The position numbers and the translations under genes are program-made. 64,000 nt of DNA from Candidatus Omnitrophota bacterium (lineage in GTDB: Bacteria; Omnitrophota; Gorgyraeia; Gygaellales; Profunditerraquicolaceae), in NCBI GenBank assembly GCA_026387335.1, contig JAPLLX010000006.1, positions 125,702 to 189,701 of the forward strand, written 5' to 3'. The notes below the pieces were generated by a model that saw only the letters and a list, made by a program, of their open reading frames with translations, ran no database searches and had not been told where the DNA came from. Positions 3,643-60,597 of the stretch are shown in pieces (the stretch's first letter is position 1; the number at the start of each line of letters is the position of its first letter).

Positions 3643-4113
3643 TTACCACCTAAAATGAGCAAACGCCTTGTTGGCTTCCGCCATCTTATGGGTATCATCT
3701 CTTTTCTTTATGGCTGAACCTTCGCCTTTATACGCCGCGATAATCTCTTCCGCCAGTTTCTGATCCATCGGCCTGCCTTTTTTATTCTGGGCAAAATCCC
3801 TCATCCAGCGTAAAGCTATTGATGTTCCACGCTCCTGGCGTACTTCAATCGGGACCTGATAAGTCGCGCCACCCACTCGGCGGGGCTTGACTTCCAGGCG
3901 GGGCCGGGCATTATCCAGCGCTTTGTAAAAAACCTTTAAGATATCCTGCTCATTAAGGTTTTTCTTTACGATCTCAAACGCGCCGTAAACAATTTTCTCG
4001 GCAATAGATTTCTTGCCTTCAACCATAACCATATTCACGAATTTCGCAACGATCTTGCTGTTAAGTTTCGGGTCCGCTAATATTACTTTTTCCTGGGCTT
4101 TTCTGCGTCTCAT
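3643..4113 (-). CDS. rpsG: 30S ribosomal protein S7
   Basis: 156 aa with typical S7 sequence; position between rpsL and fusA (str operon). Confidence 0.95.
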
Positions 4114-4481
4114 TTAGGCCTCTTTGCTCCGTATTTTGAACGTGATCTTCTTCTCTGGTTAACTCCTGCGGCATCCAATGTGCCTCTTACAATATGATAC
4201 CTTACCCCGGGCAAGTCCTTAACCCGGCCTCCCCTGACTAAAACTATGGAATGTTCCTGTAGGTTATGCCCTTCTCCCGGGATATAGGCGGTGACTTCTA
4301 TCCCCGTAGTCAACCTGACCCTGGCAATCTTACGCAGGGCTGAGTTTGGCTTTTTAGGCGTCATAGTGCGCACCTGTAAACATACACCGCGCCTCTGGGG
4401 GCAACCCTTTAAAGCCGGAGATTTACTCTTTTTATTCTTGGACCTTCTTCCTAACCTGATCAACTGCGAAATTGTGGGCAT
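4110..4481 (-). CDS. rpsL: 30S ribosomal protein S12
   Basis: 123 aa; [10 protein letters not shown] motif; overlaps the rpsG start by 4 nt. Confidence 0.95.
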
Positions 4482-4485
4482 ATGC

Positions 4486-38873: not shown

Positions 38874-38876
38874 AGT

Positions 38877-39356
38877 TTAGACTCTAGAGGTACGCTTGCT
38901 TACTTCCGAAACCATTTTTTTAAATTCCGAGTAAGTACCGCCGGCTAATTTTAAGTATTTATAGTAATACATTACGTAGCTATAATTAAATAATATCCCC
39001 CGGCTTATCCTATATTCCCCGTTATGCCTTAAAACAAAGGCCAGATCCATCCAATTATCCAGGTTATCCGGATTAAGCGCAATCGCCTTTAAAAAATATT
39101 CCTTGGCCTTCTTGAAATCCTCACTAATATAATAAACATACCCGGCTAAAGCCAGGATGGTCTCATCCTCTTGCGCTTTTAACCAATCATTGATTTTTCC
39201 TTTTAATTGATTAAACTTCGAAGGGCAGGAATAATATAAAACTGCTAATTGAGGAAAGAGCGAGTCCTCCCTCTCGGCATAACCGGATACATTATTAGTT
39301 TTGCGGGGGAAAATCCGGAAGCCGCAGATAATGTCGAATTCTTCAGGAATAGTCAT
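38877..39356 (-). CDS. TPR-repeat protein
   Basis: 159 aa; KAKEYFLKAIALNPDNLDNWMDLAFVLRHNGEY is a typical TPR unit. Confidence 0.55.
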   Translation of the reverse strand: MTIPEEFDIICGFRIFPRKTNNVSGYAEREDSLFPQLAVLYYSCPSKFNQLKGKINDWLKAQEDETILALAGYVYYISEDFKKAKEYFLKAIALNPDNLDNWMDLAFVLRHNGEYRISRGILFNYSYVMYYYKYLKLAGGTYSEFKKMVSEVSKRTSRV

Positions 39357-40328
39357 TTAGTTAAATTGGATAATAAAAGGGGTTTCGGGAGCAAACTGCT
39401 TTTTTTGCCATTTGATTCTTTTTATCGCCCTGCCCCTTTTTAAGATTACCGTATCCTTACCTTCCAAAAATACACAATCGCCTCTTTTTAAATCAGCTTC
39501 ATAAAGGTTATTCTCCGGCATCTGCCCGATAAAATAAACATTTTTATAATATATCCTTTTATTTTTTATCTCACCCTCAAAAGCGTAAAATTTTCTCTCG
39601 TAAAAGACAAGCAGAGGCAATTTCAGATGCCTGTCAATATTCCTGACTAATTCCGGTTCCTCCTCATAAATAGCGCTCCTTATCTTCTTGGTCAAACTCA
39701 GGGTCTTGGCGCAATCATAAGAACAGGGCATATGATAAATATAAGAATACGTCACATCTTTAGTAAAAGGGTTGCACAGGAACGGATGCTTACCTTGAGG
39801 CGTATTTTTTAGTATCTCATAAAGGTGGCTGTACTTATTCCAGTTATTATATTTCCGAAAGAAAGCGACACAGCAGGCCGGATAGCCCAGGTCATGCCCG
39901 AATTTGAAAGCGTCTATCAACGGTTTATCGATAACCCTGTTTTTTATGATCAAAGGGTACCATCCGTTTCGAAGAGCCTTATCTAAGTTATTTTTTGTTT
40001 TAGCTACGAAGACATGGACAGCGCTATTGACCCGCGGCTGATTTAACGGCAAGCCAAAAGCGGTAGTGGTAGTTAAACGCTCCCTGCCCACAATACCCAT
40101 AGGTAGATCTGTTTTTTTGACTACATCAAAAATAGTATCTGGCTCAACAAAAAGCCCGTAGCTGGCACATATATTATTATACGCCTTAAGCCTGTTTACC
40201 GGTATCCAATCATCCATACAGGGCTTGATTCCCTTAATGGTAGCCATAATCATTACCAATTGGCCGCTATAGCCTTTTATCTCCACAAATTCCCTGCAGA
40301 ACTTTTTAGGCAAAAATGGCTCAAACAT
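39357..40328 (-). CDS. Hypothetical protein with conserved Cys/His motifs (GYPACC ... HMPCSYDC)
   Basis: 323 aa ORF tightly packed in the operon (0-nt gap to the TPR gene; 1-nt overlap with the upstream rSAM gene). No family recognised from sequence alone. Confidence 0.4.
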   Translation of the reverse strand: MFEPFLPKKFCREFVEIKGYSGQLVMIMATIKGIKPCMDDWIPVNRLKAYNNICASYGLFVEPDTIFDVVKKTDLPMGIVGRERLTTTTAFGLPLNQPRVNSAVHVFVAKTKNNLDKALRNGWYPLIIKNRVIDKPLIDAFKFGHDLGYPACCVAFFRKYNNWNKYSHLYEILKNTPQGKHPFLCNPFTKDVTYSYIYHMPCSYDCAKTLSLTKKIRSAIYEEEPELVRNIDRHLKLPLLVFYERKFYAFEGEIKNKRIYYKNVYFIGQMPENNLYEADLKRGDCVFLEGKDTVILKRGRAIKRIKWQKKQFAPETPFIIQFN

Positions 40329-42143: not shown

Positions 42144-43259
42144 CTACTCAAAAATACGTTTTTTTGCTTCTTGGACATATTCCTTAAAGATCGGATCACT
42201 TTTTGCTTTTTTCAATACTTCCCTGGCTAGATCAACGGAACAAGAATCGCGTATTTGTAAAACCTTATTGAAATTTACACCTTTAGTGGCCTCTGTTTGG
42301 ACTTCATTACTGCTGTAATTTCTCCAACATTGCCTGCATTGAGCACAGCCCGGATCATGCTTACAAAATCGGTATTTATTTTTTAGTCCTTCCTGGATGT
42401 CTCCTATTATATATTTTTCTTTATCTTTGGAATTGATCAAAAAGGGAGAAAAGGCCAGCGTGCCATCCGGATGGACCTCCAGACTCCCAAAAAATGGACA
42501 CTCTTTATCCCGGCTACTTATTCTTTTATCTTTTAGTTCGCGGTTGACCGTATTGAGAAAGATAAAATTCCCTCTCTTAATATTAGCATATATATATTGC
42601 CTTAATTTAACCATTCCTTTTTGGAAACACTCTTTTTGCTTTATACTCCAGCTAAATCGCCGGCTACAGATAGGCTCGATATTAATACTGCTAAACCCTA
42701 AATCCGTTAAATAGAGCAAATTATTGTATATTTTATCCGCTAAAGCGGGCAATACCCCGAATAAGGCACAAAGTTTTTCTTGTTTTATATTCTTTAAAGC
42801 CAGGGGGAGCTTGTTCAATACAGCGTCAAACGAACCCTTTTGATTGCCAAAAACCCTATTTTTATCGTGATAGTCTTTACGGCCATCCAAACTAATGGCT
42901 AATCCTATTTTGGCCTTTTTGAAAAAGCTTAATTGTCGCTGATTCAATAAAATTCCATTTGTGCCCAAAGAGATGCTTAAAGACTTCTTAACCGATCTTG
43001 CTCTTTTTTGGGCAAAGTTTATTATTCTTTTAACGAGCTTGAATTTTAAAAGAGGTTCGCCTCCGTAGAGCATAAGTAGTTTTTGATTACCCGGTGAATT
43101 TAAAAACAGGGTTATTGCTTTAATGGCGACCGGATAGGTTATTGTTTGGTTGTTTTTATACACAAAACAATAGCGGCAATCTAAAATACACTCAGTGGTG
43201 ACGGTTAACCTCAGAAGATAGATCTCTTTGTTAAATTGGACGGGTAAATTAGTCAACAT
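42144..43259 (-). CDS. Radical SAM/SPASM-domain peptide-modifying-type enzyme (anSME/PqqE-like architecture)
   Basis: CILDCRYC motif, LYGGEPLL, and a C-terminal auxiliary-cluster region CPFFGS...CKHDPGCAQCRQC. Confidence 0.85.
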   Translation of the reverse strand: MLTNLPVQFNKEIYLLRLTVTTECILDCRYCFVYKNNQTITYPVAIKAITLFLNSPGNQKLLMLYGGEPLLKFKLVKRIINFAQKRARSVKKSLSISLGTNGILLNQRQLSFFKKAKIGLAISLDGRKDYHDKNRVFGNQKGSFDAVLNKLPLALKNIKQEKLCALFGVLPALADKIYNNLLYLTDLGFSSINIEPICSRRFSWSIKQKECFQKGMVKLRQYIYANIKRGNFIFLNTVNRELKDKRISSRDKECPFFGSLEVHPDGTLAFSPFLINSKDKEKYIIGDIQEGLKNKYRFCKHDPGCAQCRQCWRNYSSNEVQTEATKGVNFNKVLQIRDSCSVDLAREVLKKAKSDPIFKEYVQEAKKRIFE

Positions 43260-43268: not shown

Positions 43269-44120
43269 TCAAGCAGCCATTTTCCGGCAATCCCTGCAGA
43301 GTTTTGTTTTCCAAAATCTCAGTTTTCTCTTTTCTTTATACCTCAGAGCGTCTAAAGGACTTAAAAAGAATTTCCCTTTGAATCTTTTGTTTAAATCAAC
43401 AGGACAGGCGTATTCATAGCCATCCCATCCGATAAATGCATAGTTATCAAACAAAAACGAACAGCAAAAAACCGGATTTGCCGAACAAAAATAACCGAAT
43501 ATTCTTTTGTTCACGCTAGATTTTGGCCTAAGGCTAGAAAAATGATTTGCGGGTTTCCCCCGGTCAGCAAAAGGCACCAGGTTGACTAAGGCCTTCCGGC
43601 TGCTCCAATATTGGATGATTTTACTTTCCTCTTTAAGGTTTAGATTAGTGACTACTATATTTATCCTGACCTGAATATTACTTTTTGCATCCAGCAAAGA
43701 GTCGATATTCCTTTTAACCTGGTTAAACCGCGAACCCAAGCACATTTTTTCGTATATTTCCCTCTTTAAACTGGGGAAATTAATATCTACGCGATCAACC
43801 CGGGAATCTATAAATTGCTCCCTGATTTTGCTATCCATCAATAGACCGTTCGTAGAAATGCCCACCCGCAGGCCCTTGCGTTTTGCATATTTAATAATTT
43901 CCATCAAATGGCCGTGCAGCAGCGGCTCACCCAAACCACACAGATATATACCCTCATATTTATCGCTACTTAACCTGGAAATGATCTTTTGGCATAAGAG
44001 ATAATCCATCGCCCCGATATTAAATAATTTCTCCCGCGGGCAAAAAACACAGTTTAGATTACATTCATTAGTTATCTCGATCTCCGCTATTTTAGGGACA
44101 TTCATATTTAGTTTCCGCAT
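43269..44120 (-). CDS. Radical SAM protein (small, with C-terminal Cys-rich twitch-like region)
   Basis: ITNECNLNCVFCPRE; LCGLGEPLLH; C-terminal CCSF...YACPVD...CRDCRKM. Confidence 0.8.
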   Translation of the reverse strand: MRKLNMNVPKIAEIEITNECNLNCVFCPREKLFNIGAMDYLLCQKIISRLSSDKYEGIYLCGLGEPLLHGHLMEIIKYAKRKGLRVGISTNGLLMDSKIREQFIDSRVDRVDINFPSLKREIYEKMCLGSRFNQVKRNIDSLLDAKSNIQVRINIVVTNLNLKEESKIIQYWSSRKALVNLVPFADRGKPANHFSSLRPKSSVNKRIFGYFCSANPVFCCSFLFDNYAFIGWDGYEYACPVDLNKRFKGKFFLSPLDALRYKEKRKLRFWKTKLCRDCRKMAA

Positions 44121-45704: not shown

Positions 45705-47684
45705 TTAATCGGGATACCGGACATTTATATTTAAAGCCTTTAGAAACCCCCGGACTTTTATCACCTTTCCCGCTTGCAATCCGTTACTCCCTCTCCCATT
45801 TTCATTATCTAGATAGCTGTCGACGTCAACGCGGATAGAATCTAATCCTGATTTCTTAAGTGACTTAAGTAGCCCGAATGAAATATGCGCGAGGCTCTCC
45901 ACTCTAGTTTGAAAAGACCAAGGGAAAGAATAAATTTTCCCGTTCTTTATCTCAACTGAAAGCTTAGCCACAAATTCCTTCGCCCGGGTCGCATCTTTAA
46001 GAAAATCATCTTCAATAAAATCTACATATTTATCATCAACATACAAAAATAGATCCTTAATCTTATTTATTATGGTCTGCGCAGTATTATTCCCGGTTTG
46101 TATGCGGGCTATCCGGTATTTGGAAAAATACTCTGATAATAAATAATGCGGTAAAGGACGGAAAATCCGCTTAGCCTTTAATAACTGGCCCGCTTTGCTC
46201 CCCAAGGAACCCTCGACAACAACAGGTATAGCGAACCGGGATTTAATGCGCCGGGCTAACCTTTTGATTTCTTCAATTTGAGCAGGCTCGCCTCCGACAA
46301 GACCGATACGAATCAATTTATTTTTTCCGGCTAATTCTATGATTTTTCTGGATAAATGAGGCTCCTGCCTGGCATCGAGAATTTTAACTTTTATATTATT
46401 TCTTACTAACGGTTCCGCTAATTCCAAAAGCTCTAAAGGATAAACAGAGGCATCATTTTCCTTTCCGGAAGCCAGATAGATCAACAACACATCAACAGGG
46501 CCTGGCGGGACTGTTTTGGCTATGGAATCAAAAATCGTTTTAGGTTGATAGGCAAGTTCGATTTTCGTCTTTAATTTATCTTGTTCTCTAATTAAATTCT
46601 CCATCCGCATGATAACCGACGTCCTGTACATAATTTCCGAACAGGGAACCTTACCGCCTAAATCATACGCCTTGGTGCCTTCCCTGTCTGAATAGTAGAA
46701 ACAACTCATTAAATCAAAATGCCCGAACAACGAGAATAGACTGTTAAAGTCTTTCCGGCTCTCCCCCGGAAAGCCATAAATCAAGTGCGTCCTCAGATCG
46801 ATTTTCTGGTTTATCCTTTTGATATCGGCTAAAATATTTAGAACGGCGTTAATATTATAGCTCCTGTTCATTAGCTTAAGCAAACGGGCAGAAACTGTCT
46901 GAATCGGAACATTCAGAGAGTCAATTTTTTTAAAGACGTTTTTATCGATATGGGGGTACAATTTTAGCAGCCGGTTAGGCTCAAAATATAAAATTCCCAA
47001 AGAATCAAAACTATCCCCGAGCTCGCCGCATAATAAATTCAAAAGCTCGGCAAAATTAGTCTTGATGTCTAAACCGTAACTACCGCAATCATCAGCCAAT
47101 AAGAAAAACTTTCTTAATCCGGATTTTATCCCCAGTTTAAACTCACGCAGTATCTGTTCCGGAGCTTTACTTTCAATATTTCCCTTGGCTTTTTTGATTA
47201 TGCAATATGAGCAATTATTAACGCACCCCTGGCCGATCTGTATATAGCCATACTCCAACTCTCCAATACGATCGGAGCAAAAATATTTGTTCAGCTTGCC
47301 CGTATAGACATCTTCCATTTTTATTTTTGCTGAAAAAATCTCGTCAAATTTCGTTAGCTCTTTCGGACCTACGGCGATTATCCTTTTATCCCGGGGGAGG
47401 TCTCGGTTGATTTTAGGAAGGCATCCACAGACTATTATCTGTTTTTTAGACGCAAATCTTTCTATCAAGGGCTCTAGTAAAGACAACGCTTCGTTTTCGC
47501 GCCTTTTATCAAAAGCGCAGGTAGTAATAATAATAAAATCGGCTTCTTCCGGATTATCAACTATCCAAAAACCGTTTCTTTCGAAGAAAGAATACAACTG
47601 GCTTCCTAAATAGGCGTTAGTCTTGCAGAATTTAAAACTAGTGGTTAAATAAACCTTATTAATTTTTGTTTTTCGCATAATCAA
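45705..47684 (-). CDS. MiaB-like (methylthiotransferase N-domain) radical SAM protein with an extra C-terminal Rossmann/B12-binding-like domain
   Basis: N-terminal MTTase-like block (ADFIIITTCAF), rSAM motif GCVNNCSYC, then about 280 extra residues including VDVLLIYLAS...KVKILDARQEP. Confidence 0.7.
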   Translation of the reverse strand: MIMRKTKINKVYLTTSFKFCKTNAYLGSQLYSFFERNGFWIVDNPEEADFIIITTCAFDKRRENEALSLLEPLIERFASKKQIIVCGCLPKINRDLPRDKRIIAVGPKELTKFDEIFSAKIKMEDVYTGKLNKYFCSDRIGELEYGYIQIGQGCVNNCSYCIIKKAKGNIESKAPEQILREFKLGIKSGLRKFFLLADDCGSYGLDIKTNFAELLNLLCGELGDSFDSLGILYFEPNRLLKLYPHIDKNVFKKIDSLNVPIQTVSARLLKLMNRSYNINAVLNILADIKRINQKIDLRTHLIYGFPGESRKDFNSLFSLFGHFDLMSCFYYSDREGTKAYDLGGKVPCSEIMYRTSVIMRMENLIREQDKLKTKIELAYQPKTIFDSIAKTVPPGPVDVLLIYLASGKENDASVYPLELLELAEPLVRNNIKVKILDARQEPHLSRKIIELAGKNKLIRIGLVGGEPAQIEEIKRLARRIKSRFAIPVVVEGSLGSKAGQLLKAKRIFRPLPHYLLSEYFSKYRIARIQTGNNTAQTIINKIKDLFLYVDDKYVDFIEDDFLKDATRAKEFVAKLSVEIKNGKIYSFPWSFQTRVESLAHISFGLLKSLKKSGLDSIRVDVDSYLDNENGRGSNGLQAGKVIKVRGFLKALNINVRYPD

Positions 47685-51306: not shown

Positions 51307-52443
51307 TCAGGCATCAAAACCCAGACCCGTGATATCAATAACCTTGCGCAGGTCTTTGTATTTTTTAAGTCGCAGCAATTTATTAAACAAATCTAGGCTG
51401 TTTTTTAATTCTACCCCGCAGGCCTTTTTAGTAGCTGAATAAGGGTAAACATCTACCCTGGAAAAACTAAACCTTTTTAAGAAATCTAAAGTCTGGACCA
51501 AATCATCTTTAGTCTCACCCGGGAATCCGACAATAATATCGGTAGTCAAACGTAGATTACGCACCTTGCGGCATAATTTATTAAACAACATCCGCAAGTA
51601 GGCGGAATCATATTTTCTACGCATCATCTTTAAAATACGATCGGAAGCCGACTGGATAGGAACACTTATTTCTTTATTGATCTTATCATTTAAGATGAGC
51701 TCCATAAGCTTATCCGATAAATCGTTGGGATAAAATTCCAAATAAAATACCTCCAGATTAGTCTGGGCTAAAATAAATTCTAATAACTGAGTGAAGGTAA
51801 AATGTTTGTTCCGCGGGTCATGCCAACCGCCCATGCAGGGCCCGCCAAATTCAATCCTCTTTATCCCTCTTAACCCCAACTGCCTAATCTGCTTTTTAAC
51901 CTCACTAAAACTGACATTCCTATTTTTCCGCAGGCAGGGGCAAATACAATAACGGCAATAATTATTGCACCCATTTTCTATTAATATTATCCCGGAATTA
52001 AGAGTGTTACGGTAAACCGGTTTATTAGATGAGGCTAGTGTTTTTCTTAAATATCCGGCAATGCCTTCTTCCCTTATAAATAATATATTCCGGAGACCTT
52101 TTATCTTGGTCTCTGGCAATGACGAGGATGGATAACTCAAGGAACAACCGCTTAATATTATCAAAGCTTCTTTATTGACCCTCCTAATGTAAAACAAAAA
52201 ATTCTTTACAAATTTTTCTAAGTAAGCGGTTATCGGGCAGGCATAAATAATAAAAACCTTTGCTTTGAAAGCCAGGCGTCTTTCTTGCGAATCGCGGAAG
52301 AAATCCCGGTCATCTCCAAAATATTGGTTATAGATAGAAAAGGAATTCTCTAAGGCAAAAGTTAACTGTTGCGCTTGGAACCGGTTAGCCGCGCAACCGT
52401 AAGATTTAATAAAAATGTCCGGATTTTTATTATTTTTAGGCAT
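51307..52443 (-). CDS. MiaB-like methylthiotransferase-family radical SAM protein (no TRAM domain evident)
   Basis: N-terminal MTTase block IKSYGCAANRFQAQ; rSAM motif GCNNYCRYC; 378 aa. Confidence 0.75.
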   Translation of the reverse strand: MPKNNKNPDIFIKSYGCAANRFQAQQLTFALENSFSIYNQYFGDDRDFFRDSQERRLAFKAKVFIIYACPITAYLEKFVKNFLFYIRRVNKEALIILSGCSLSYPSSSLPETKIKGLRNILFIREEGIAGYLRKTLASSNKPVYRNTLNSGIILIENGCNNYCRYCICPCLRKNRNVSFSEVKKQIRQLGLRGIKRIEFGGPCMGGWHDPRNKHFTFTQLLEFILAQTNLEVFYLEFYPNDLSDKLMELILNDKINKEISVPIQSASDRILKMMRRKYDSAYLRMLFNKLCRKVRNLRLTTDIIVGFPGETKDDLVQTLDFLKRFSFSRVDVYPYSATKKACGVELKNSLDLFNKLLRLKKYKDLRKVIDITGLGFDA

Positions 52444-52445: not shown

Positions 52446-53828
52446 CTAAAAATACAGATATTTCATATCGGCCCGCTTAATCCTGCCGGCTAGAGGAGAA
52501 AGTACTGCCCTGCATTTAGCAATAATTTTTTGATCATAAAAATATTTAGAAAAAATGGCGTACTCGCCCATATTAGCCGATTTAGAGCATAAAAATCCCG
52601 GTGTATCTTTAATTTTTTTTCTTGTTTTTAAATAGGCTATTTCTTTAGCGAAAACCTTATCCGGGTCTTTTTTAAAAATATCCCTGAATCTCTCTTTGCT
52701 GACCCTGCCGTAACGCAGCCAACTGGTTATAAAATATATCATTTCATCTCTTTGGGTTAGGCGGCAGGTTGATTGAATCGGGAGCTTCCCTTGGTTTAAA
52801 GAATAACAGTATTTATCCGGGTCGTTAAGATTAACGTATCTTGAATAACCGGTGGCATGAGAGACCGCCCCGGCTCCTAGACCTAAAAATGGGCTGTTGT
52901 GTTCTATCGCATCGGAGAGTTGGACATTCCGAGCTGCCGGGTTTAGGCCGTTAGCGTCAAATTCTATCGCCGCGTATCCGGCTTGCCTAATAACTGCCTG
53001 GCTGATTTTGGCCAAACGCTCTCTTAGATCCATCTCTTCTTTAGAAAGCTGGCCTCCGGCTTGCATAAATGCGGTTAAGGCTGTCGGATAAAAGGGATGG
53101 ATATGGATCAATTCGGGCCGCAGCCGAATTACCTCCTCAAGGGTTTTCAAAACACTCTTAGCGGTTTGCCCGCTTAATCCTACCATTAAATCAACATTAA
53201 TGTTGGCTATTCCGGCGTTGCGGGCATCCTGAAAACAGCGCTCAAATGATTCTTTTGACTGATAGCGATTAGCGGACTCTAGGACCCGGCTATCTAAACT
53301 TTGGATACCTATAGTCAGCCTATTCACGCCGTATTTCTTTAATAATTTGAGCTTAGTCCAAGATAAAAAATCAGGATTCCCCTCAAAGGATATTTGTCGG
53401 CATTGATTAAGGTTAAAACTCATATACAGAGCATCAAATAACTCTTTTAATTGGCCTAAGCTTAATAAAGCTGGCGTGCCGCCGCCAAGATAAACTGAAG
53501 ATAGGGGAAATTTTGCGAATAATGGTTTATAGATTTTTATTTCTTTCTTTAAGGCGGCGAGGTAATCTTTTAATGCGGCCCTTTGCGCTAACTCTTGAGA
53601 AAAATAACGGCAGAATGAACATTTTTGCTTGCAAAAGGGTATGTGCACATATAACCCCAGGTGCCTAAAATTATTGGCCAAGGATTTTGACCATGACCTT
53701 AAGATTTCCCGGTTTGAACGGGCTTTCCCCCACAAAAACATCGGGGGATATTGAATAGTGTAACCGCTAAAATCCGTATTAGCGATTCCCTCGGTGATAC
53801 GCTTGAACAAAAAATCGTTATTTTCCAT
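52446..53828 (-). CDS. HemN-like radical SAM protein (HemN/HemW; class C rSAM methyltransferase-type architecture)
   Basis: YVHIPFCKQKCSFCRYF and the HemN-family fold length (460 aa). Confidence 0.8.
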   Translation of the reverse strand: MENNDFLFKRITEGIANTDFSGYTIQYPPMFLWGKARSNREILRSWSKSLANNFRHLGLYVHIPFCKQKCSFCRYFSQELAQRAALKDYLAALKKEIKIYKPLFAKFPLSSVYLGGGTPALLSLGQLKELFDALYMSFNLNQCRQISFEGNPDFLSWTKLKLLKKYGVNRLTIGIQSLDSRVLESANRYQSKESFERCFQDARNAGIANINVDLMVGLSGQTAKSVLKTLEEVIRLRPELIHIHPFYPTALTAFMQAGGQLSKEEMDLRERLAKISQAVIRQAGYAAIEFDANGLNPAARNVQLSDAIEHNSPFLGLGAGAVSHATGYSRYVNLNDPDKYCYSLNQGKLPIQSTCRLTQRDEMIYFITSWLRYGRVSKERFRDIFKKDPDKVFAKEIAYLKTRKKIKDTPGFLCSKSANMGEYAIFSKYFYDQKIIAKCRAVLSPLAGRIKRADMKYLYF

Positions 53829-53833: not shown

Positions 53834-54978
53834 TTAATTAAGCAATTGCCGGGTCCCGTAAATTTTAGTAAACAAGCGGTTCCGGTGAAGTTTTCTTTCT
53901 ATTTCGAGAAAGGTATGGATATAAATCTGAGACAAGCGGCAGAATTGGGGAAAGTAGCGCTTAAAATCTAAGCCCCAAGAAGAAAAATAAATATAATGCC
54001 CAACCGGGCAGAAGCAGTATCTTAAATATTTACATCTATTGCAATCCTTACCGGTTAATTCCCTTATTTCTTTTCTCTTTTGGGCTAAGAGCTTAAGCCG
54101 TAAACGGTTATTTATCCCTTTATGGATATCCCCGATAATAAATTTTTTTCTTTCCGGCTGGGCTATAGAAAATACTTTATCGCAGCAATAAAAATTCCCC
54201 TCCCAACCTAAGTGGATTTTCTGGCAACGAATGGGTTTATAAAGCCCTTTTCCTCTTATAAATGTACCCAATAAAGAATTTTCAAAAATATCTTTACTAT
54301 CTTTGGCTTTCTCAAAGATAGAGATATAGAAATCGCTAAACTCCCGGAATGCTGATTCGGCTTTATCTAAGCCAGCTTTTGACCATTGGGTGTAAAGGTT
54401 AGGGAAGAAATTAATGCGGTTAAACCCCAGATTCCGGAGATATTTTATATTTTTGAGCAGGCCGCTGATTGTCTGAGGCGTAAAGACTAAAGCGGAATAT
54501 ATTTTATGTCTGGTGTTATCCAGATCCAGTCGCTTTAAGTTCCCGGCTAGGCGATCATGACTAGAGCCATATGCTTTGCGCTTGAAAGGACGGTTGGAGT
54601 CTTGAACCTTTTTCTGGCCGTCTATACTGACTGTGGTTATAATCCTGTTTTCTTTTAAAAAACTTGACCGGCTGGGAGTCAGAAGAGTACCGTTAGTAAC
54701 AACCGTAACCGCTAATTTTGAACTTCCCTTATTCTGCTGAATATAATGATACAGCTTTTTTAACTTTCCAAACCTTAAACAAGGTTCCCCGCCGACAAAA
54801 TTTATACTCTTAGTGTTTCCGGGAGATGTTAAAAAAAAACTACGGCCTTCTTTAACTGCTCAACATCCAGTTCTTTATCTTTACAACTGTCCTTTTTAAC
54901 GAAACAATAATGGCAATCTAAATTACAGTGCTTGGTCAAAAAGATGTTCAACGCCTCGGGATGACTTTCTAACACCAT
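53834..54978 (-). pseudogene. Radical SAM/SPASM maturase (HxsC-like position) interrupted by a single-base frameshift in a T9 homopolymer (54831-54839)
   Basis: From the ATG at 54976-54978: MVLESHPEALNIFLTKHCNLDCHYCFVKK...VVFF then stop. Reading on in the +2 frame through the T-run gives FFLTSPGNTKSINFVGGEP... and runs continuously into the annotated C-terminal fragment (53834..54271, CCDK...CNRCKYLRYCFCP). One extra T (T10) would restore an intact protein of about 380 aa. Confidence 0.7.
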
Positions 54979-55307
54979 CCCCCTCCTCGCCCATGGTTAC
55001 CGTGGTTAGAGTGGTTAGAGTGGTTAGAGTGGTTACTATGGTTGGTGTGCGAACTGGAATGTGGCGTAGAGGAAGTATGGCCGCCTCCCCCCCCAGAGAC
55101 GAGCGAGTTACTATGGCTGGAATGACTGGCATGCTGGGCCTGAGCGCCTTTAGGTTCTAGCATCATTCCCAATACGGCTAAAGATATGCCTAATTTAGCA
55201 ATATTCTTCTTAGAGGCGTTCCCTTCTTCATTAAAAAGAAAGTCTTTAATATTTCTTTTAGTAACGGGCAATTTTTTATTCACCTTCTTATGGAGCTTTT
55301 TTTTCAT
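54969..55307 (-). CDS. His/Ser-rich triplet-repeat secreted peptide (His-Xaa-Ser-repeat precursor-like)
   Basis: Likely start is MKKKLHKK (ATG 55305-55307), 6 nt after AAGGAGG; the ORF-track GTG start at 55376 overlaps the upstream gene. Hydrophobic segment IAKLGISLAVLGMMLEPKGAQA, then HASHSSHSNS...GGGGG...HSSSHTNHSNHSNHSNHSNHGNHGRGGGWC. Its stop overlaps the start of the downstream rSAM gene. Confidence 0.55.
   Translation of the reverse strand: MKKKLHKKVNKKLPVTKRNIKDFLFNEEGNASKKNIAKLGISLAVLGMMLEPKGAQAQHASHSSHSNSLVSGGGGGHTSSTPHSSSHTNHSNHSNHSNHSNHGNHGRGGGWC
54993..55047 (-). repeat. Tandem 9-bp coding repeats (GTGGTTAGA x3 perfect, plus degenerate flanking units) encoding the HSN triplet repeat
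   Basis: gtggttaga gtggttaga gtggttaga gtggttact atggttggt. Confidence 0.85.
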
Positions 55308-56073
55308 TACGCGCCTCCTTATTAAGGGTAGCACAATATTTCTGGATAAATTCTTCAAATCCCTCATACTTTTCACAAGTAGTTTCGTCCCCGCTGATAT
55401 AACCCTGGCACATTAATCTTATATTAGGATCTTTTATTCCGTTGCATTTAGCAAGATTCTTTTCCTTAATCGCTTTTATATAAATGACTTTATCTACACA
55501 AAAATCATTCTTGCACAGTTTAACGTTTCCGGTGGTAAAAGCCCTGCATTCATTGCGTTCTGCTTCATTTTGCGCCTTTTCACAGACAGAACTATCATTG
55601 TTCAGCACTCCTTGCATAAATAGTTTAAACCCTTCACTATTCCGGTCCTTCCAGGAATTCATCAATTGCAGGCTGTTAAAGCCGGACTTAAAAAATCTGC
55701 CGTATATACCCTGATACTCGGTAAAATTAACCCGGCAGTCTTCCAGAAGAGAAGGTTGTAAACTAAGTTTGCCGCATTCCTCTATATCATCCTTTACCAC
55801 TGAACGGCAGTAGATACAACCAGTTAGAAGCTCCACTATCGGGGCCACTCGGGGATCATTAAAGTCTACCTTGTTAATATAAAAATCCTTAGAGCAATCT
55901 GCTGGCTTTTTTTCTTGAGGATAAGTCTCCACTTCTTGGGGATAATCCTCGATTAACTCGGCTTCGCTAAAAAGGAAAGAAAAATGGCTACTCAACATAA
56001 GAGAAACCAGAGACAGGAAGATGACCTTTAGGGCTAGTTTAAATTTGTCCATTATCAGCTCCTCATCACCCAT
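55288..56073 (-). CDS. Cys-rich secreted/membrane-anchored protein (16 Cys in the mature part)
   Basis: 261 aa; N-terminal hydrophobic helix LALKVIFLSLVSLMLSS; cysteines in spaced pairs (CIYC, CEKAQNEAERNEC, CKNDFC). Lies between the rSAM gene and the His/Ser peptide. Confidence 0.5.
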   Translation of the reverse strand: MGDEELIMDKFKLALKVIFLSLVSLMLSSHFSFLFSEAELIEDYPQEVETYPQEKKPADCSKDFYINKVDFNDPRVAPIVELLTGCIYCRSVVKDDIEECGKLSLQPSLLEDCRVNFTEYQGIYGRFFKSGFNSLQLMNSWKDRNSEGFKLFMQGVLNNDSSVCEKAQNEAERNECRAFTTGNVKLCKNDFCVDKVIYIKAIKEKNLAKCNGIKDPNIRLMCQGYISGDETTCEKYEGFEEFIQKYCATLNKEARNEKKAP

Positions 56074-57497
56074 TTATAAAATATATCCTTTATCTTCTCA
56101 TCTTTGAGCTTAATAAATAAATAATCCAAAATACCCTTATTGATCTGGCACCAAAATGCGGACTTATTAAAAATGTTCCCATTTATGGTATAATTCTGCA
56201 AAGGACATACCCCGCAATAGGGTTTATATACGCACTGGCTGCATTCGGGAAGATTATCCAGGCATGACGCTATGCACATCGTTTTTACCACGTTACTCTT
56301 AAAAAAATCCCTGTGCGAACCGGTCCTTACATTACCCAGCCTAAAAGATTCGTCTTTCTGCCGGCTCATCATCCTTCCTTCGTCACAGGCATAAACATCG
56401 CCATTAAAATTATAAGCCATTTGCCCTGTCCCTGCCCCGCAGGGAGAACGCAAATCAACATAACCCGGATCTTTATCCGTCAAAATTTTAGTTAAAAATA
56501 TCACGGCGAACCTTTCCCGAAAATCTTTGCCTTTCATATTCAAATCTATTATATGATCCAAAGCCTTTTTATAAAAAGTAAGGAAATCCTGCCCGGAGAA
56601 AGCTAACCTCTTCCATACCTTCTTATTAGTCCCAAACGGGCTTAGCGGCCTTAAATGCATCCCTTCCAGCCCTAATTTTACATATTCATTGACAATTTCT
56701 TTCGGAAAAGGAAGGGCCAGGCGGGTAATCGTAGCCAGAGCGAACGGCTTATGGCAGGAATTTGCTTTTTTATACTCCCTTATTAATCTTTTCAGCCATT
56801 TAACCGTATTTTTATGACTATTTTTATTCCCCAGAGTAACCCTGCATTTGTTATGCACCTTTTCGGGCCCATCCAATGAAGTGCATATATGGATATCGTT
56901 CTTTAAAAGGTACTTAACTATTTTCTCATTCATAAAGGTCAAATTGGATACAACGGTAAAACGCAAGTCCTTCTTGGCTTTTTTGTTCTTCTCTTGAGCA
57001 TACCGAACAATAAATTTTATAATTTCAAAATTGACTAAGGGTTCGCCTCCCTGAAATTCAATAGTAATTCCTTTATTGGCAGATTCAAAAATCCTATCGA
57101 CAACTTTTTCAGCCGTAGCTATATCCATATCTAATTCATTTTCCTTAAGATCCCGGGAACTTGCCTGACAATAAATACACTTATGGTCGCATCTTAAAGT
57201 AACTACCACAATATGTAAAGCGGTGCCTGCACTCCTTAAAAACATATTTTTTTGCACGTATCTTTGGGCCAGGTTATCAAAGTTTAACTGACCCCGGATA
57301 AAACCTTTATTCCGCAACTGGGAATACTCTTGGGGCGAAGCTTGTTCTATTTTACCGCTAAGGAAGGCGTTAAAACTTGGGGGCTGCAAAAAAATATAAT
57401 CCCCTATGACATTAGTCAGCAAATATTGCCCGTTTAACCGCTTAAATTGAAAGAAACCGACCTTCTGTCTATCTATCTTTTCAGACTCTAGCAACAT
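56055..57497 (-). CDS. Radical SAM/SPASM peptide-maturase-type enzyme with an about 100-aa N-terminal extension (HxsB-like position)
   Basis: LRCDHKCIYCQAS; FQGGEPL; C-terminal SPASM CGAG...YACDEG ... CSQCVYKPYCGVCP. Confidence 0.85.
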   Translation of the reverse strand: MLLESEKIDRQKVGFFQFKRLNGQYLLTNVIGDYIFLQPPSFNAFLSGKIEQASPQEYSQLRNKGFIRGQLNFDNLAQRYVQKNMFLRSAGTALHIVVVTLRCDHKCIYCQASSRDLKENELDMDIATAEKVVDRIFESANKGITIEFQGGEPLVNFEIIKFIVRYAQEKNKKAKKDLRFTVVSNLTFMNEKIVKYLLKNDIHICTSLDGPEKVHNKCRVTLGNKNSHKNTVKWLKRLIREYKKANSCHKPFALATITRLALPFPKEIVNEYVKLGLEGMHLRPLSPFGTNKKVWKRLAFSGQDFLTFYKKALDHIIDLNMKGKDFRERFAVIFLTKILTDKDPGYVDLRSPCGAGTGQMAYNFNGDVYACDEGRMMSRQKDESFRLGNVRTGSHRDFFKSNVVKTMCIASCLDNLPECSQCVYKPYCGVCPLQNYTINGNIFNKSAFWCQINKGILDYLFIKLKDEKIKDIFYKWVMRS

Positions 57498-57700
57498 TTC
57501 TTGGTCGCTCCTAAGACGTAATTGTTAAATTCATCTACAAATATATCCTTGACCTGCGTATCTATATTCTCTATTTTTACTTCTAGGTAATCTTTACAAT
57601 CCTTGACCCTGAATTTTGCCAGATGAGCATAAGCAAGGATCGCTTTCTGGATCGCCTTTTTTTTATAAAACCGAGTATTAAATCTTACGTTTTCTGGCAT
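57488..57700 (-). CDS. Small hypothetical protein (70 aa, ends ...KKCC)
   Basis: ORF overlapping both neighbours within the operon; no family recognised. Confidence 0.3.
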   Translation of the reverse strand: MPENVRFNTRFYKKKAIQKAILAYAHLAKFRVKDCKDYLEVKIENIDTQVKDIFVDEFNNYVLGATKKCC

Positions 57701-58082
57701 TTTTCTGTTTTCTATGTTTCTTTTTCCAAGGCAAAGCTATACCTAAAGGATCATCCTGATAATCCAGTTTTTCGGAAAGACTGACTACACCCGGACCCGG
57801 TAAAGTAGTATATAAAGCGCGGCCAACGATATATTCCCTGATCTTTTTGTTATTCTTACTTATCTCGTATCTTAAGGCGCAGCGCAATAGCTCATTCTTG
57901 AATTCACCTTTTAACGCTTCCAGTTTTTTACCCGCAACCTTGCCTTTACTTTTAAAAAAAACCTTAATCTGATTTCCCTTAAGATCGCTATCCAAAAAAA
58001 TGTAGACGCGGTCAATAAATAAATAACAAGCATTCAAAATAGCTTCTAAAGGATAGATTCTTGCGCTTAGCTTAATCTCCAC
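57678..58082 (-). CDS. Small hypothetical protein with basic C-terminal tail (possible HxsD-like accessory protein; unverified)
   Basis: 134 aa, GTG start; located between the secreted paralogs and the rSAM/SPASM gene. Confidence 0.35.
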   Translation of the reverse strand: MEIKLSARIYPLEAILNACYLFIDRVYIFLDSDLKGNQIKVFFKSKGKVAGKKLEALKGEFKNELLRCALRYEISKNNKKIREYIVGRALYTTLPGPGVVSLSEKLDYQDDPLGIALPWKKKHRKQKNARKRKI

Positions 58083-58115: not shown

Positions 58116-58457
58116 TTAAGGTGACACAAAATAATCTACCGTACTCACCCATTTACTTTTATTTTTAACCCATACGTCACTAGCCGCGATCTCACCGTTA
58201 ACATCCAGTTCCGTCTGAACGCCCCCGTAGCTAGCTGCGCTGGTCGCTCCAATATTCACCTGCCCCTGGACAATAAGGCCGTTACTGGGCAGAGTGGTTG
58301 CTCTATACCCGGAGCCGATGGACATCTGGTCCGAGCGCAATTCTATATAACTACCGTAGGGCGAGGGATAGTAGGTAGCGATGGGGATGTTTTCTCCGGC
58401 AAAAACAGTTATATATCCTAAAAAAGATACCGCGATAATTAATAATAACTTCTTCAT
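58116..58457 (-). CDS. Secreted Gly/Ser-rich protein, paralog 1 (113 aa)
   Basis: Signal peptide MKKLLLIIAVSFLGYITVFAG; mature part ENIPIATYYPSPYGSY...VNGEIAASDVWVKNKSKW shared with paralog 2. Confidence 0.6.
   Translation of the reverse strand: MKKLLLIIAVSFLGYITVFAGENIPIATYYPSPYGSYIELRSDQMSIGSGYRATTLPSNGLIVQGQVNIGATSAASYGGVQTELDVNGEIAASDVWVKNKSKWVSTVDYFVSP
58149..58337 (-). repeat. 189-bp near-identical direct repeat, copy A (copy B at 58633..58821; about 98% identity)
   Basis: Copy A (58149..58337) aligns with copy B (58633..58821) with only 3-4 mismatches, which indicates a recent tandem duplication or gene conversion between the paralogous genes. Confidence 0.8.
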
Positions 58458-58470: not shown

Positions 58471-58950
58471 TTAACCGCAGCATAAAAAAGATCCGGACGT
58501 AGGTATATCATAAGTAGTGGGGCTAGTGCCATATATTGGCTGAAACCAACTATACGTAGTCCCTGAACCGCAGAGGGTATTTCCAGTATTAGGTCCATAT
58601 GTCTTCATTGTACACCAGCTCAGACTCCCCAGCCATTTACTTTTATTTTTAACCCATACGTCACTAGCCGCGATCTCACCGTTAACATCCAGTTCCGTCT
58701 GAACGCCCCCGTAGCTAGCTGCGCTGGTCGCTCCAATACTCACCTGCCCCTCGATAATAAGGCCGTTACTGGGCAGAGTGGTTGCTCTATACCCGGAGCC
58801 GATGGACATCTGGTCCGAGCGTAGATTCGCGTAAACTCCGTAAGGCGAAGGATAATAAGTGGTAATGGTCAGATCTTCTGAAAAAGCAAAAGGGAAGGAA
58901 ATTATAATTAAACCTATAGAAATTACTAACGTGGTAAAAAATTTATTCAT
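58471..58950 (-). CDS. Secreted Gly/Ser-rich protein, paralog 2, with Cys-containing C-terminal tail
   Basis: Likely start MNKFF (ATG 58948-58950) preceded by AAGAGGTG. Shares the core with paralog 1, plus the tail CTMKTYGPNTGNTLCGSGTTYSWFQPIYGTSPTTYDIPTSGSFLCCG. Confidence 0.6.
   Translation of the reverse strand: MNKFFTTLVISIGLIIISFPFAFSEDLTITTYYPSPYGVYANLRSDQMSIGSGYRATTLPSNGLIIEGQVSIGATSAASYGGVQTELDVNGEIAASDVWVKNKSKWLGSLSWCTMKTYGPNTGNTLCGSGTTYSWFQPIYGTSPTTYDIPTSGSFLCCG
58633..58821 (-). repeat. 189-bp direct repeat, copy B
   Basis: See copy A (58149..58337). Confidence 0.8.
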
Positions 58951-59028
58951 TGCACCTCTTAGCATAATTCCTACTTGACCCTGCCCGCTCTTAAGAATAA
59001 ATTATCATAACTCCTGCAATGAGTCAAG

Positions 59029-60597
59029 TTAAAACAGGTGCGCCTTGACCCTGGCAATATCTTCTCCCTGCTTAAGCTCATTTATGAAATTTTCCATATT
59101 CTTCTCCCAGGCCCTATCCGTAAAAAAATAACGCGCGAGGTACTTATTCATTCGCCGCGGATCTTTAAACTTCCTGTTCATTAAAAATACGAACTGGACA
59201 GGCCTGAAATAATCAATCTTATTGCGGTCCAGGCACTCTAAGAAACGGGAATACCGGTATTCCATCAATTTCCTAGCCATATCCCACTTCCAACCCCGGA
59301 ATTCATCATAGGCAAACTCAAAACCCGGATTTGATTGCTCCCTAACATTAATAATCCTGTATTTTGCGCAAGATCTAAACATCAGACTTTCCGGTTTAAG
59401 CACAAACCTGTTTAAATTAACTCCTTTAATATACGCATTATTATCTCTTATGAATTCCAGCGTGGAAATGATATCCTGGCTCGTCTCAAAAGGCAAACCG
59501 ATCAACAGGTCTATCTCTACCCAGATGCCCAGGTCATGGCATAGTTTTAAAATATGGGAAGCGTGTTTAAGGTCAATGACTTTACCTATGTATTTCTGCA
59601 GTTTAATACCGGCGGATTCCAATCCGATCACCAGCCTTACTGCCCCCGCTTCTTTTAAACGCAAAAGTATTTCTTTATCCAGGTTATTAAAGGTGGCGCA
59701 GTCGGTAAACTTTATCTTTAGGCGCTCTTTTGCTATCTTATCGGTAAGATCCCGGACAGTCTGCTTGGTTGGATTGATATTCGAATTCAGAAAAAAGAAG
59801 TCCTGCGTCTTATGTTCCCGTTTAAGAAATTTTAGTTCGCGGATTATCCTATCGTAATCCTTTATCTTAAATCCGGGTTTTCCGGATAATTCACAAAATA
59901 TACAGCTATTCTGGCAGCCTTCGATAAACGTATACGGGAGCAATAAAGGAAGTGATTTTGAAACGCCGGTATATCTGGATAAATTGCTTATCCGCCCTGA
60001 ATGCGGGAGAAACTCCGAGATTATAGTATTCCTGCTGTATTTATATAGGCTAAGCGGAAACCCCTTAAAATTCGGCTCTAAGAAAATCCGGGGAAGTTTC
60101 GGGTTAAGCTTGTTTTTGACGTTTAAAAAATCAATAAAGCTGTCTATACTGGAAGTCTGGTAATCTATAAGGCCTGCCTCTCGGTAAGCCGGCAGCTCGA
60201 AATTAGCGACGATTATCACGCCATAGCTATCTTTTATCTTCTTCATCAGGCAGGCGGCGATAGCCTGGCTGTTGATTCTATCCAACGACGGGTAATGCCC
60301 GGAAAAACAGACATAATCATACCCCGAAAAATCTGTTAAGGCCATTACTTTTGCGGTTTCCGCATCAATCTCAGCGCAAGCAGACCCGCGTAGGTAATCA
60401 TTGACTCTGGCTTGGTCCAGAAAAACATCCGTTTTTATGCTCCCCTTTACCAAAGACCTGTAAAGTTTGACATAAAGATCGTCGATATCATGCTCTATAT
60501 TATTCTGGCTTAAAGCCGAACTTACTAGCGCCAGGCCCAAAGGAGGCATGAAGGCATGATAGAAATAGTAAGGGGTAAGAACTAATTTCACTTTCAT
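59029..60597 (-). CDS. Cobalamin-binding-domain radical SAM protein (class B-type architecture)
   Basis: N-terminal B12-binding-like region (VLTPYY...PPLGLALVSSAL) and rSAM motif EGCQNSCIFCEL; 522 aa. Starts 21 nt downstream of etfA. Confidence 0.8.
   Translation of the reverse strand: MKVKLVLTPYYFYHAFMPPLGLALVSSALSQNNIEHDIDDLYVKLYRSLVKGSIKTDVFLDQARVNDYLRGSACAEIDAETAKVMALTDFSGYDYVCFSGHYPSLDRINSQAIAACLMKKIKDSYGVIIVANFELPAYREAGLIDYQTSSIDSFIDFLNVKNKLNPKLPRIFLEPNFKGFPLSLYKYSRNTIISEFLPHSGRISNLSRYTGVSKSLPLLLPYTFIEGCQNSCIFCELSGKPGFKIKDYDRIIRELKFLKREHKTQDFFFLNSNINPTKQTVRDLTDKIAKERLKIKFTDCATFNNLDKEILLRLKEAGAVRLVIGLESAGIKLQKYIGKVIDLKHASHILKLCHDLGIWVEIDLLIGLPFETSQDIISTLEFIRDNNAYIKGVNLNRFVLKPESLMFRSCAKYRIINVREQSNPGFEFAYDEFRGWKWDMARKLMEYRYSRFLECLDRNKIDYFRPVQFVFLMNRKFKDPRRMNKYLARYFFTDRAWEKNMENFINELKQGEDIARVKAHLF

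Follow-up and report, generated by a model that had tools for sequence, protein, structure and literature searches.

The His-Xaa-Ser (Hxs) system goes back to a bioinformatic definition by Haft and Basu (cited in PMC9062424). In 2026 it was characterised in Escherichia coli as an antiphage system that blocks phage DNA entry (PMC13128918). In that system HxsA undergoes radical S-adenosylmethionine (rSAM)-dependent maturation and export, a +8 Da modification was localised to its SHRSS motif, HxsC binds HxsD, and the matured HxsA acts in the periplasm (PMC13128918). The E. coli genes are ordered D-B-C-A, and the HxsA substrate, which carries a peptidoglycan-binding domain together with five HxS repeats, is insoluble when expressed alone. 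NCBIfam models exist for HxsA, HxsA2, HxsA3, HxsA4, HxsB, HxsC, HxsC4, HxsD and the HxsD-like protein. In this study an open reading frame (ORF) of 112 aa was analysed in a 64,000-nt stretch of DNA from Candidatus Omnitrophota bacterium (GenBank assembly GCA_026387335.1, contig JAPLLX010000006.1, positions 125,702 to 189,701 of the forward strand), which is termed the window and to which all coordinates refer. The ORF very probably encodes an HxsA-type substrate peptide of a divergent His-Xaa-Ser rSAM maturation system.

Identity of the peptide

The ORF lies on the minus strand, from an ATG at 55305-55307 to a TAG at 54969-54971; the preliminary description of this DNA had given no strand. Its product, MKKKLHKKVNKKLPVTKRNIKDFLFNEEGNASKKNIAKLGISLAVLGMMLEPKGAQAQHASHSSHSNSLVSGGGGGHTSSTPHSSSHTNHSNHSNHSNHSNHGNHGRGGGWC, starts with MKKKLHKK and ends with GRGGGWC (54972-54992). 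The basic N-region, hydrophobic stretch and AQA-like site noticed in that description are present and conserved in the family alignment, and the Gly5 run and the C-terminal GRGGGWC were both located by codon reading. Residues 1-37 contain 12 Lys or Arg versus 3 Asp or Glu, and the only hydrophobic segment has its Kyte-Doolittle maxima at residues ~36-50. AlphaFold2 (AF2), run with the family alignment, predicted two helices (residues 15-26 and 33-49) and, beginning at residue 56, a tail without order. The 55-residue product predicted after AQA has 15 Ser, 12 His, 10 Gly, 7 Asn, one Arg, no Lys, one Trp and one Cys. Its HxS-type triplets are H-A-S, H-S-S and H-S-N (residues 59-67) and H-T-S (77-79), the long tract consisting of H-x-N six times.

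A word-indexed search returned ~28 close homologs of 85-116 aa and 48-68% identity, labelled 'hypothetical protein' or unlabelled at source, the best of them with the NCBI label Candidatus Omnitrophota. The window peptide was aligned with 30 homologs (31 sequences). P14, F23, E27, G29, K38, L43 and H87 are invariant, and G40, S42, L46 and H59 are kept in at least 90% of the members. Four features, namely a ΦPxΦKKxIKDFLxxEEG leader, the hydrophobic helix, period-3 His repeats and an AxA site, are common to the close homologs and to the cluster representatives described below. The alignment also shows an HxSHSSHSN block, a GG-H-SS block and an H-x-N tract of variable length; conservation in the Gly5 run is limited to its last two Gly, which precede His77. 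When 1.84 billion cluster representatives were searched with the family profile, 708 relatives had E ≤ 1e-3, and 95 had E ≤ 1e-10; the relatives are mostly of 80-130 aa, and the EEG leader motif is present in 124 of the best 150. No second HxsA-like gene was found in the window by profile search of its six-frame translation.

Two other independent assemblies hold the identical peptide, at locus L027 (100% identical to the window) and at locus L026 (a different strain, 97.5% nucleotide identity). Window and L026 differ in the peptide gene by five synonymous and no non-synonymous changes, each of them in a third codon position; read in the other same-strand frames, nearly all of these five changes would be non-synonymous. 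Judged by the alignment and the strain comparison, the ORF is a real conserved coding gene under purifying selection. Overlapping alternative ORFs are present in the repeat region (54923-55132, minus strand; 54993-55160, plus strand), as a reading of the ORF as a repeat artefact in non-coding microsatellite DNA would have it. This reading is refuted by the conservation data and was given practically no credence: about 30 close homologs and the 708 profile matches keep frame, leader and periodicity, indels among the orthologs are in frame, the strain differences are all silent in the peptide frame and nearly all non-silent in the other frames of that strand, and a strong Shine-Dalgarno sequence precedes the ATG. 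Frame and periodicity are thus both kept in the homologs, opposite to the two signs of non-coding DNA named in the preliminary description (out-of-frame conservation, or lack of any homolog with preserved periodicity). The internal start at MMLEP proposed there (two Met codons, 55161-55166) was rejected, as the residues upstream of it are conserved as protein and the strain changes in them, codons 29 and 47 included, are synonymous third-position differences only.

Among the NCBIfam families only HxsA3 and HxsA4 were matched by the peptide. The HxsA3 model is matched by all 31 aligned members and the HxsA4 model by 25 of them; four clade members scanned singly reached 53-59 bits on HxsA3, still under its cutoff. 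Conversely, the family profile recovered the bona fide HxsA4 proteins P0145 (69.6 bits on the HxsA4 model) and P0164 (71.8 bits), and the bona fide HxsA3 protein P0073 (118.7 bits) has the same N-terminal architecture as the window peptide. On its leader and period-3 His repeats the peptide is placed in the HxsA3/HxsA4 superfamily of His-Xaa-Ser repeat peptides, below both cutoffs.

HxsA3 is the best hidden Markov model (HMM) match of the peptide. The HxsA3 protein P0073 of Lachnospiraceae (locus L014, with HxsD-HxsC-HxsB) shares with it a ΦPxΦKKxIxDLIxxEEG motif, a hydrophobic helix, an AxA-like site and HxSHxSH repeats, and both are linked to HxsB and HxsD. However, HxsA3 proteins have a length of ~190 aa, lack GGWC and carry a long C-terminal extension rich in Ser, Pro and Ala, and their loci, unlike the window, have a true HxsC (TIGR03977, 325 bits) and unknown genes of 448 aa and 341 aa. 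HxsA4 is similar in length (~90-110 aa), has the same leader and gives an end-to-end HMM alignment; like HxsA4 systems, the window has an HxsD-like protein above cutoff and an HxsC-type enzyme closest to HxsC4. The true HxsA4 proteins P0145 and P0164 differ in their long HGS/HAS runs and in ending with ...GSY or ...SND, not GGWC. In the Lachnospiraceae HxsA3 loci (L014-L016) a conserved downstream block of a Halogen_Hydrol-like gene, TelA, TelA and a rhomboid gene was also observed, and the unannotated 341-aa and 448-aa genes lie between or beside HxsC/HxsB and HxsA3. Some superfamily members (P0153, of 522 aa, and others) have the leader and very long (C)HSN/HGS arrays fused to a large C-terminal domain.

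The genes surrounding the peptide gene are detailed in Table 1. Consecutive operon genes overlap by 10-23 nt; between the end of the HxsB gene and the peptide start, 748 nt downstream, lies the Cys-rich gene alone, and the ATG of the rSAM/SPASM maturase gene rSAM2 sits inside the Gly-Trp codons of the peptide. The related loci examined again show the order HxsD, HxsD-like, HxsB, (Cys-rich protein), peptide, rSAM, except that no HxsD-like gene was detected in L019. Clear orthologs of the HxsC-like enzyme (37-76% identity) are found near the peptide in L017, L019, L022, L003, L002, L023, L028 and L029, and in L019 the ortholog follows the peptide directly. Weaker matches, of ~29-30% only, were obtained in L021 (contig end) and L024. 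In L028 the set is compact (~9 kb) and comprises a secreted protein, HxsD, HxsD-like, HxsB, Cys-rich protein, peptide and rSAM2-like genes, followed by another rSAM, the HxsC-like, DUF483-like and TPR proteins and the A24-like protease. In the window such a set is split by ~11 kb of extra rSAM, glycosyltransferase and AsnB-like genes. The DUF483-like/TPR/A24-like trio (37962-40328), of which the A24-like member is polytopic, co-occurs with the Hxs-like locus in L017, L019, L028 and L029.

Table 1. Features of the peptide gene and of the associated genes in the window.
Feature	Position	Strand	Basis or remarks
HxsA-like precursor/effector peptide gene	54969..55307	-	ORF, HMM matches, 30 homologs aligned, strain comparison
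Shine-Dalgarno sequence AAGGAGG	55314..55320	-	6 nt 5' of ATG; read from sequence
Conserved basic leader, residues 1-37 (LPxxKRxIKDFLFNEEG)	55197..55307	-	alignment, composition, AF2 helix 15-26
Hydrophobic helix, residues 38-50, KLGISLAVLGMML; export signal h-region or membrane anchor	55158..55196	-	Kyte-Doolittle, AF2, alignment
AQA, residues 55-57, candidate signal-peptidase-I site	55137..55145	-	AxA-like motif kept in alignment
H-A-S-H-S-S-H-S-N block, residues 59-67	55107..55133	-	most conserved part of the core
Gly5, G72-G76	55080..55094	-	codon reading
H-x-N tract, seven His at period 3, H87-H105	54993..55049	-	codon reading
Exact 9-bp tandem DNA repeat	55002..55035	-	TRF, codon reading, shuffle test
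C-terminal GGWC	54972..54983	-	21/31 aligned members
HxsD	57678..58082	-	TIGR03976, 66.9 bits (cutoff 50)
HxsD-like protein	57488..57700	-	NF038315, 69.3 bits (cutoff 41)
HxsB radical SAM/SPASM maturase	56055..57497	-	TIGR03978, 505.9 bits (cutoff 370)
Cys-rich secreted or anchored protein	55288..56073	-	no Pfam/NCBIfam match; accessory of WC-type loci
rSAM2, rSAM/SPASM maturase, 381 aa if read through	53834..54978	-	T9-interrupted; orthologs intact
HxsC4/HxsC-like radical SAM, 294 aa	40328..41212	-	NF038332, 152 bits; TIGR03977, 91 bits
DUF483-like	39357-40328	-	Pfam
TPR protein	38877-39356	-	Pfam
A24-family GxGD intramembrane aspartyl protease-like	37962-38873	-	Pfam; conserved Asp, WGAGDAKL

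A conserved gene, the superfamily features, the operon with HxsD, HxsD-like and HxsB and the linked HxsC-like rSAM enzyme therefore make an HxsA-type substrate the preferred reading, held with high confidence. The preliminary description had suggested a modified-peptide precursor for rSAM chemistry, which is borne out by the operon with HxsB, HxsD, HxsD-like and rSAM2 and by the HxsA3/HxsA4 superfamily membership. It had also considered metal binding. A plain Sec-exported His-rich peptide binding Ni, Zn or Cu, with coincidental rSAM neighbours, would account for the 12 His at period 3 in the 55-residue tail and for the signal-like hydrophobic segment with AQA. Such a peptide is nevertheless quite improbable, given that the linkage to HxsB, HxsD and HxsD-like is tight, with overlapping reading frames, and recurrent across phyla, and that the N-terminal conservation, common to HxsA3 and HxsA4, extends far beyond the need of a signal peptide; metal binding by the mature product would in any case add to rSAM maturation, not replace it.

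Several observations weigh against the HxsA-type assignment. The peptide scores under the cutoffs of both matched families (HxsA3, NF038309: 44.6 bits, E 9.4e-12, residues 14-100 on profile positions 3-80 of 81, cutoff 65; HxsA4, NF038313: 31.1 bits, end to end over positions 1-93 of 93, cutoff 55), and canonical HxsA (TIGR03979) and HxsA2 (NF038296) gave no NCBIfam match at E ≤ 0.01. No enzyme reaches the HxsC (268 bits) or HxsC4 (500 bits) cutoff, the HxsC-like gene is 14 kb from the peptide in the window, and rSAM2 is split by a T9 run of the coding strand (A9 on the plus strand, 54831-54839). The predicted mature part has one basic residue apart from His and no peptidoglycan-binding domain, for which 112 aa leave no room, so that the electrostatic DNA-binding model of E. 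coli would not transfer directly. PADLOC gave no defence-specific match, just a generic rSAM similarity to viperins. Finally, the export, the cleavage site and the chemistry of the peptide are all predictions. On these scores the window system is a divergent variant of known Hxs, within the HxsB and HxsD families and under the HxsA3, HxsA4, HxsC and HxsC4 cutoffs.

If the assignment holds, the missing substrate of a Hxs system has been found at a locus where HxsB, HxsD and HxsD-like exceed the NCBIfam cutoffs and the peptide and its homologs are 'hypothetical' or unnamed. With 708 representatives of clusters at 50% identity, the leader-sharing HxsA3/HxsA4-like superfamily is a large one, and it reaches the uncultivated phyla Omnitrophota and Patescibacteria and a 'Planctomycetia' metagenome-assembled genome (MAG), compared with a published survey of canonical HxsA in which 99.7% of the systems were placed in Pseudomonadota.

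Repeat tract and C-terminal end

By Tandem Repeats Finder (TRF), positions 54994-55035 hold 4.7 copies of a 9-bp unit, at 93% matches. Exact periodicity is limited to 34 nt, which consist of CAC-TCT-AAC three times with one 5' flanking base and a 3' AAC-CAC; the outer H-x-N units differ in their codons (CAT AGT AAC, CAC ACC AAC and CAC GGT AAC). Period-9 matched positions in the exact tract number 25, versus a maximum of 12 and a mean of 7.9 in 200 shuffles of the window, and it is the sole long exact tandem tract of period 3-30 within the 64 kb. The range 54993-55047, previously described as perfectly repeated 9-mers, therefore contains a 9-bp repeat but corresponds to the whole H-x-N tract, the exact part being limited to the interval in Table 1.

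Codons for the period-3 His pattern differ in the orthologs, as in L019 (CAC TCA AAC CAC GGC AAC CAC TCC AAC), and the distant relatives L002 and L003 have H-x-S at the position of H-x-N. Orthologs thus keep the H-x-N/S periodicity with different codons, so that the His-repeat periodicity is selected at the protein level. The number of His units among the 31 sequences was three in 16, four in three, five in six, six in two, seven in two and eight in two, the seven units of the window copy being among the longest of the clade. A tract prone to repeat-number variation had been predicted; this is true across orthologs (3-8 units) but not between the two strains of 97.5% nucleotide identity, in which the copy number is identical. 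A cluster look-up for repeat-number variants was uninformative, the exact peptide sequence being absent from that collection. The exact 9-mers stem from a recent in-frame expansion, by slippage, of an H-x-N tract that tolerates changes of length; the tract is evolvable and, on present evidence from these comparisons, not hypervariable.

The C-terminal GGWC is present in 21 of the 31 aligned members. An origin of GGWC as a by-product of the overlapping downstream start codon or ribosome-binding site was rejected: L023 and L025 (Patescibacteria) keep it without downstream overlap, with gaps of 2 nt and 7 nt, respectively. The association of the end with other genes was counted on the six loci of this type whose contigs span both positions. 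In all of them (window, L017, L021/22, L023, L024 and L028) an end with both Trp and Cys (GGWC, GSWC or GPCGW) is accompanied by both an rSAM2-type gene and a Cys-rich protein gene. The peptides of L019, L002 and L029 end with ..GSY, ..GAW and ..NSW, without Cys, and both genes are absent; that of L003 ends with ..HCSGGVSKI (Cys, no Trp), with no rSAM2 ortholog and a weak Cys-rich homolog. The short Patescibacteria contig L025 combines GGWC with an rSAM2-like gene (31% identity) and has the order HxsD-like, peptide, HxsB, with no Cys-rich gene between HxsB and peptide. The tie of the Trp/Cys end to rSAM2 and the Cys-rich protein is suggestive, among loci that are phylogenetically related, and from this co-occurrence we infer that rSAM2 may modify the Trp-Cys end.

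Among 150 superfamily members the C-terminal endings were WC in 24, QW in 16, SW in seven and SY in six, aromatic with or without Cys, which hints at several C-terminal 'modules'. Loci L002 and L023 are on the same contig (CAYRDK010000002.1), ~5 kb apart, as two Hxs-like loci in one MAG, one with a GGWC-type peptide, Cys-rich protein and rSAM2 and the other with a ...GHGAW peptide and neither accessory.

The Cys-rich protein has 13 Cys, ~10 of them conserved in orthologs, and an N-terminal hydrophobic signal or anchor; its likely start is MDKFKL at 56052, not 56073. Its AF2 model, from a 3-sequence alignment, is all-helical and of moderate confidence, with a predicted local distance difference test (pLDDT) score of 62, and Foldseek returned no significant PDB counterpart of this model (best E 0.8). 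The protein probably serves as an extracytoplasmic partner.

Maturation enzymes and the interrupted rSAM2 gene

The T9 run that interrupts rSAM2 is identical in the divergent strain L026. Downstream of it, window and L026 differ by 20 synonymous and 12 non-synonymous changes, with a ratio of non-synonymous to synonymous polymorphism (pN/pS) of 0.16 and no new stops, the pN/pS values of intact neighbour genes being 0.00-0.35. A protein of 381 aa colinear with its orthologs, which elsewhere are in a single frame, is restored either by one added T or by slippage of -1 on U UUU UUU immediately ahead of the 0-frame UAA. A near-identical intact rSAM2 allele was not found, the best match being 63% identical, and the RNA fold downstream of T9 (z = -0.04) gave no sign of a frameshift-stimulating structure. 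By the strain comparison both parts of rSAM2 are under purifying selection. The T9 pattern is suggestive of recoding, through either -1 frameshifting or transcriptional slippage, and agrees less well with a sequencing error or a dead gene.

The best characterised matches of rSAM2 were PapB (131.6 bits), CcpM (107 bits) and the SCIFF maturase (93.5 bits), for which the cutoffs are 340-500; HxsB is also among the best. The PapB/SCIFF-type thioether maturases are thus its best-scoring characterised families, and its presumed substrate, the window peptide, has a single conserved Cys. The scores are, however, far under the cutoffs, and no ranthipeptide-type acidic acceptor motif is evident in the peptide.

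These similarities bear on a different chemistry, in which the product would be a secreted ribosomally synthesised, post-translationally modified peptide (RiPP) precursor whose H-x-N/H-x-S triplets become three-residue His cyclophanes (triceptide-like), with a C-terminal Cys thioether or similar made by rSAM2. The synthases of triceptides belong to the rSAM/SPASM enzymes and act on aromatic-X-X motifs, the His motifs HAA, HNR and HTK among them (PMC11499958), and the period-3 aromatic-X-X motifs of the precursors processed in the HaaA/HaaB, HtkA/HtkB and YhhA/YhhB pairs resemble the spacing that is conserved at the protein level here. HxsB and rSAM2 are secondarily similar to GrrM/OscB, YhhB, FxsB and AmcB (cyclophane) and to PapB, SCIFF and CcpM (thioether). 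Against this, the GrrM/OscB, YhhB, FxsB and AmcB models were matched at only 51-78 bits, with HxsB and rSAM2 at 55-70 bits on the cyclophane-maturase models (cutoffs 310-445), so that similarities to the characterised cyclophane and thioether maturases are far under cutoffs; the repeat number is freely variable and the invariant parts are elsewhere; and the sole Hxs chemistry measured, with +8 Da at a single SHRSS site in place of -2 Da for every repeat, differs from that of the triceptide systems. A triceptide-like product is accordingly doubtful, and maturation of the Hxs type is preferred.

Proposed pathway and function, and other genes of the region

The preliminary description left open whether the N-terminus is a signal peptide or a leader. 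The N-terminal 37 residues are conserved beyond the need of an n-region and are shared with HxsA3 and HxsA4, which makes them more like a recognition leader before an export or anchor helix. Of the parts of a Sec-type signal peptide (short basic n-region, h-region of 7-15 residues, AxA c-region), an h-region (36-50) and AQA are present, and the n-region would be 37 residues long and strongly conserved. HxsB, the HxsC-like enzyme and HxsD would recognise the peptide by residues 1-37. In the proposed pathway, HxsB and the HxsC-like enzyme, with help from HxsD and the HxsD-like protein, would recognise the basic helical part of the leader (residues ~12-37) while in the cytoplasm, and these enzymes would put one or more covalent modifications on the His/Ser core, which is conserved. 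Within it the HxSHSSHSN block is the foremost candidate for the modified site, purely by analogy, its S-H-S-S resembling the SHRSS of E. coli, and the H-x-N tract would be a length-tolerant array. The adjacent PapB/SCIFF-like rSAM/SPASM enzyme may act on the C-terminal Trp-Cys.

The hydrophobic helix would carry the peptide to or through the membrane. Either signal peptidase, cutting at AQA, or the co-conserved A24-type protease, as a candidate dedicated leader peptidase, would then take off the leader. The near-invariant K38-L-G40|I-S42-L43, where the hydrophobic helix begins, is loosely like a class III (prepilin-type) cleavage site, which is put forward as no more than a secondary hypothesis. 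The rhomboid gene downstream in HxsA3 loci would also fit intramembrane processing. The disordered tail of ~55 residues, rich in His, Ser, Asn and Gly, would be released into the cell envelope, where it may act with the Cys-rich secreted protein. An envelope-located end function is most likely, either defence-like as in E. coli HXS or metal or ligand binding.

Like E. coli HXS, the window has HxsB and HxsD of orthologous families, an HxS-repeat substrate with an N-terminal export signal and, as a concept, rSAM-dependent maturation. Unlike E. coli HxsA, the peptide is of 112 aa, with a long conserved leader, no peptidoglycan-binding domain, H-x-N repeats, GGWC and almost no basic residues in the core, and unlike the E. 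coli system the window has two HxsD paralogs, extra rSAM enzymes, a Cys-rich partner, the protease/TPR/DUF483-like trio and a distant HxsC-like gene. Functional equivalence to the E. coli HXS antiphage effector, in which a matured periplasmic peptide blocks phage genome entry, would draw on the homologous machinery (HxsB and HxsD above cutoff, and the HxsC-like enzyme), on the experimentally shown defence by E. coli HXS through an exported, rSAM-matured HxS-repeat effector, and on the L017 locus, which abuts a serine recombinase and a HEPN/nucleotidyltransferase pair. It is rather unlikely, since the peptide is outside canonical HxsA and has no peptidoglycan-binding domain, with one Arg and no Lys in its predicted mature part; the window neighbours are metabolic and other rSAM genes, with no defence island and no PADLOC signal; and 99.7% of canonical HXS was assigned to Pseudomonadota in the published survey. 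The upstream flank of L017, the closest relative (positions 1-6149), comprises a Toprim protein, the serine recombinase and the HEPN/nucleotidyltransferase pair and is mobile or defence-like in content, and at this flank position the window has B12-rSAM and electron transfer flavoprotein (ETF)/acyl-CoA dehydrogenase genes.

More tentatively still, the WC-type HxsA-like peptides of Omnitrophota, Patescibacteria and relatives might form a distinct undescribed Hxs branch. In such a branch Trp-Cys would be cross-linked by a PapB/SCIFF-like rSAM/SPASM enzyme, expressed here solely via T9 slippage, leader and helix would be cut by the GxGD A24-type protease, and the His-ladder peptide would work with the disulfide-rich secreted helical protein in the envelope. 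This full scheme is unlikely as it stands; if true, it would be a multi-enzyme envelope system differing in composition, and probably in function, from the phage-DNA gate of E. coli. Should the WC-type branch prove to be no phage-entry gate, the Hxs machinery would have been reused for another envelope function. Short soluble-looking substrates with an invariant HxSHSSHSN block and a separable C-terminal WC module may ease the reconstitution of Hxs maturation chemistry in vitro.

With respect to the other genes of the region, Pfam gave no match for the peptide, the Cys-rich protein, HxsD, the HxsD-like protein or two paralogous small secreted proteins encoded directly upstream of HxsD (58116-58457 and 58471-58965, minus strand). 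A promoter and terminator scan of 53.5-59.2 kb gave counts equal to those of shuffles. The small secreted proteins have Sec-like signals and a conserved motif, YYPSPYG(S/V)Y..LRSDQMSIGSGYRATTLPSNGL; they gave no NCBIfam match either, and PDB sequence searches with a small secreted protein and HxsD returned nothing meaningful. Their homologs occupy the same position in L017, L019, L021, L023, L028 and L003, and they may belong to the system.

Nine rSAM genes were counted in ~20 kb of the window (40328-60597): the HxsC4-like gene, a PapB-like SPASM gene (42144-43259), a gene at 43269-44120, two MiaB-like genes (45705-47684 and 51307-52443), a HemN-like gene (52446-53828), rSAM2, HxsB and a B12-binding rSAM gene (59029-60597). 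This island also holds a glycosyltransferase family 2 (GT2)/methyltransferase fusion, a GT2, a peptidase U32-like gene and an AsnB-like gene of opposite strand, and the set is partly syntenic in L017, L021/22 and L023.

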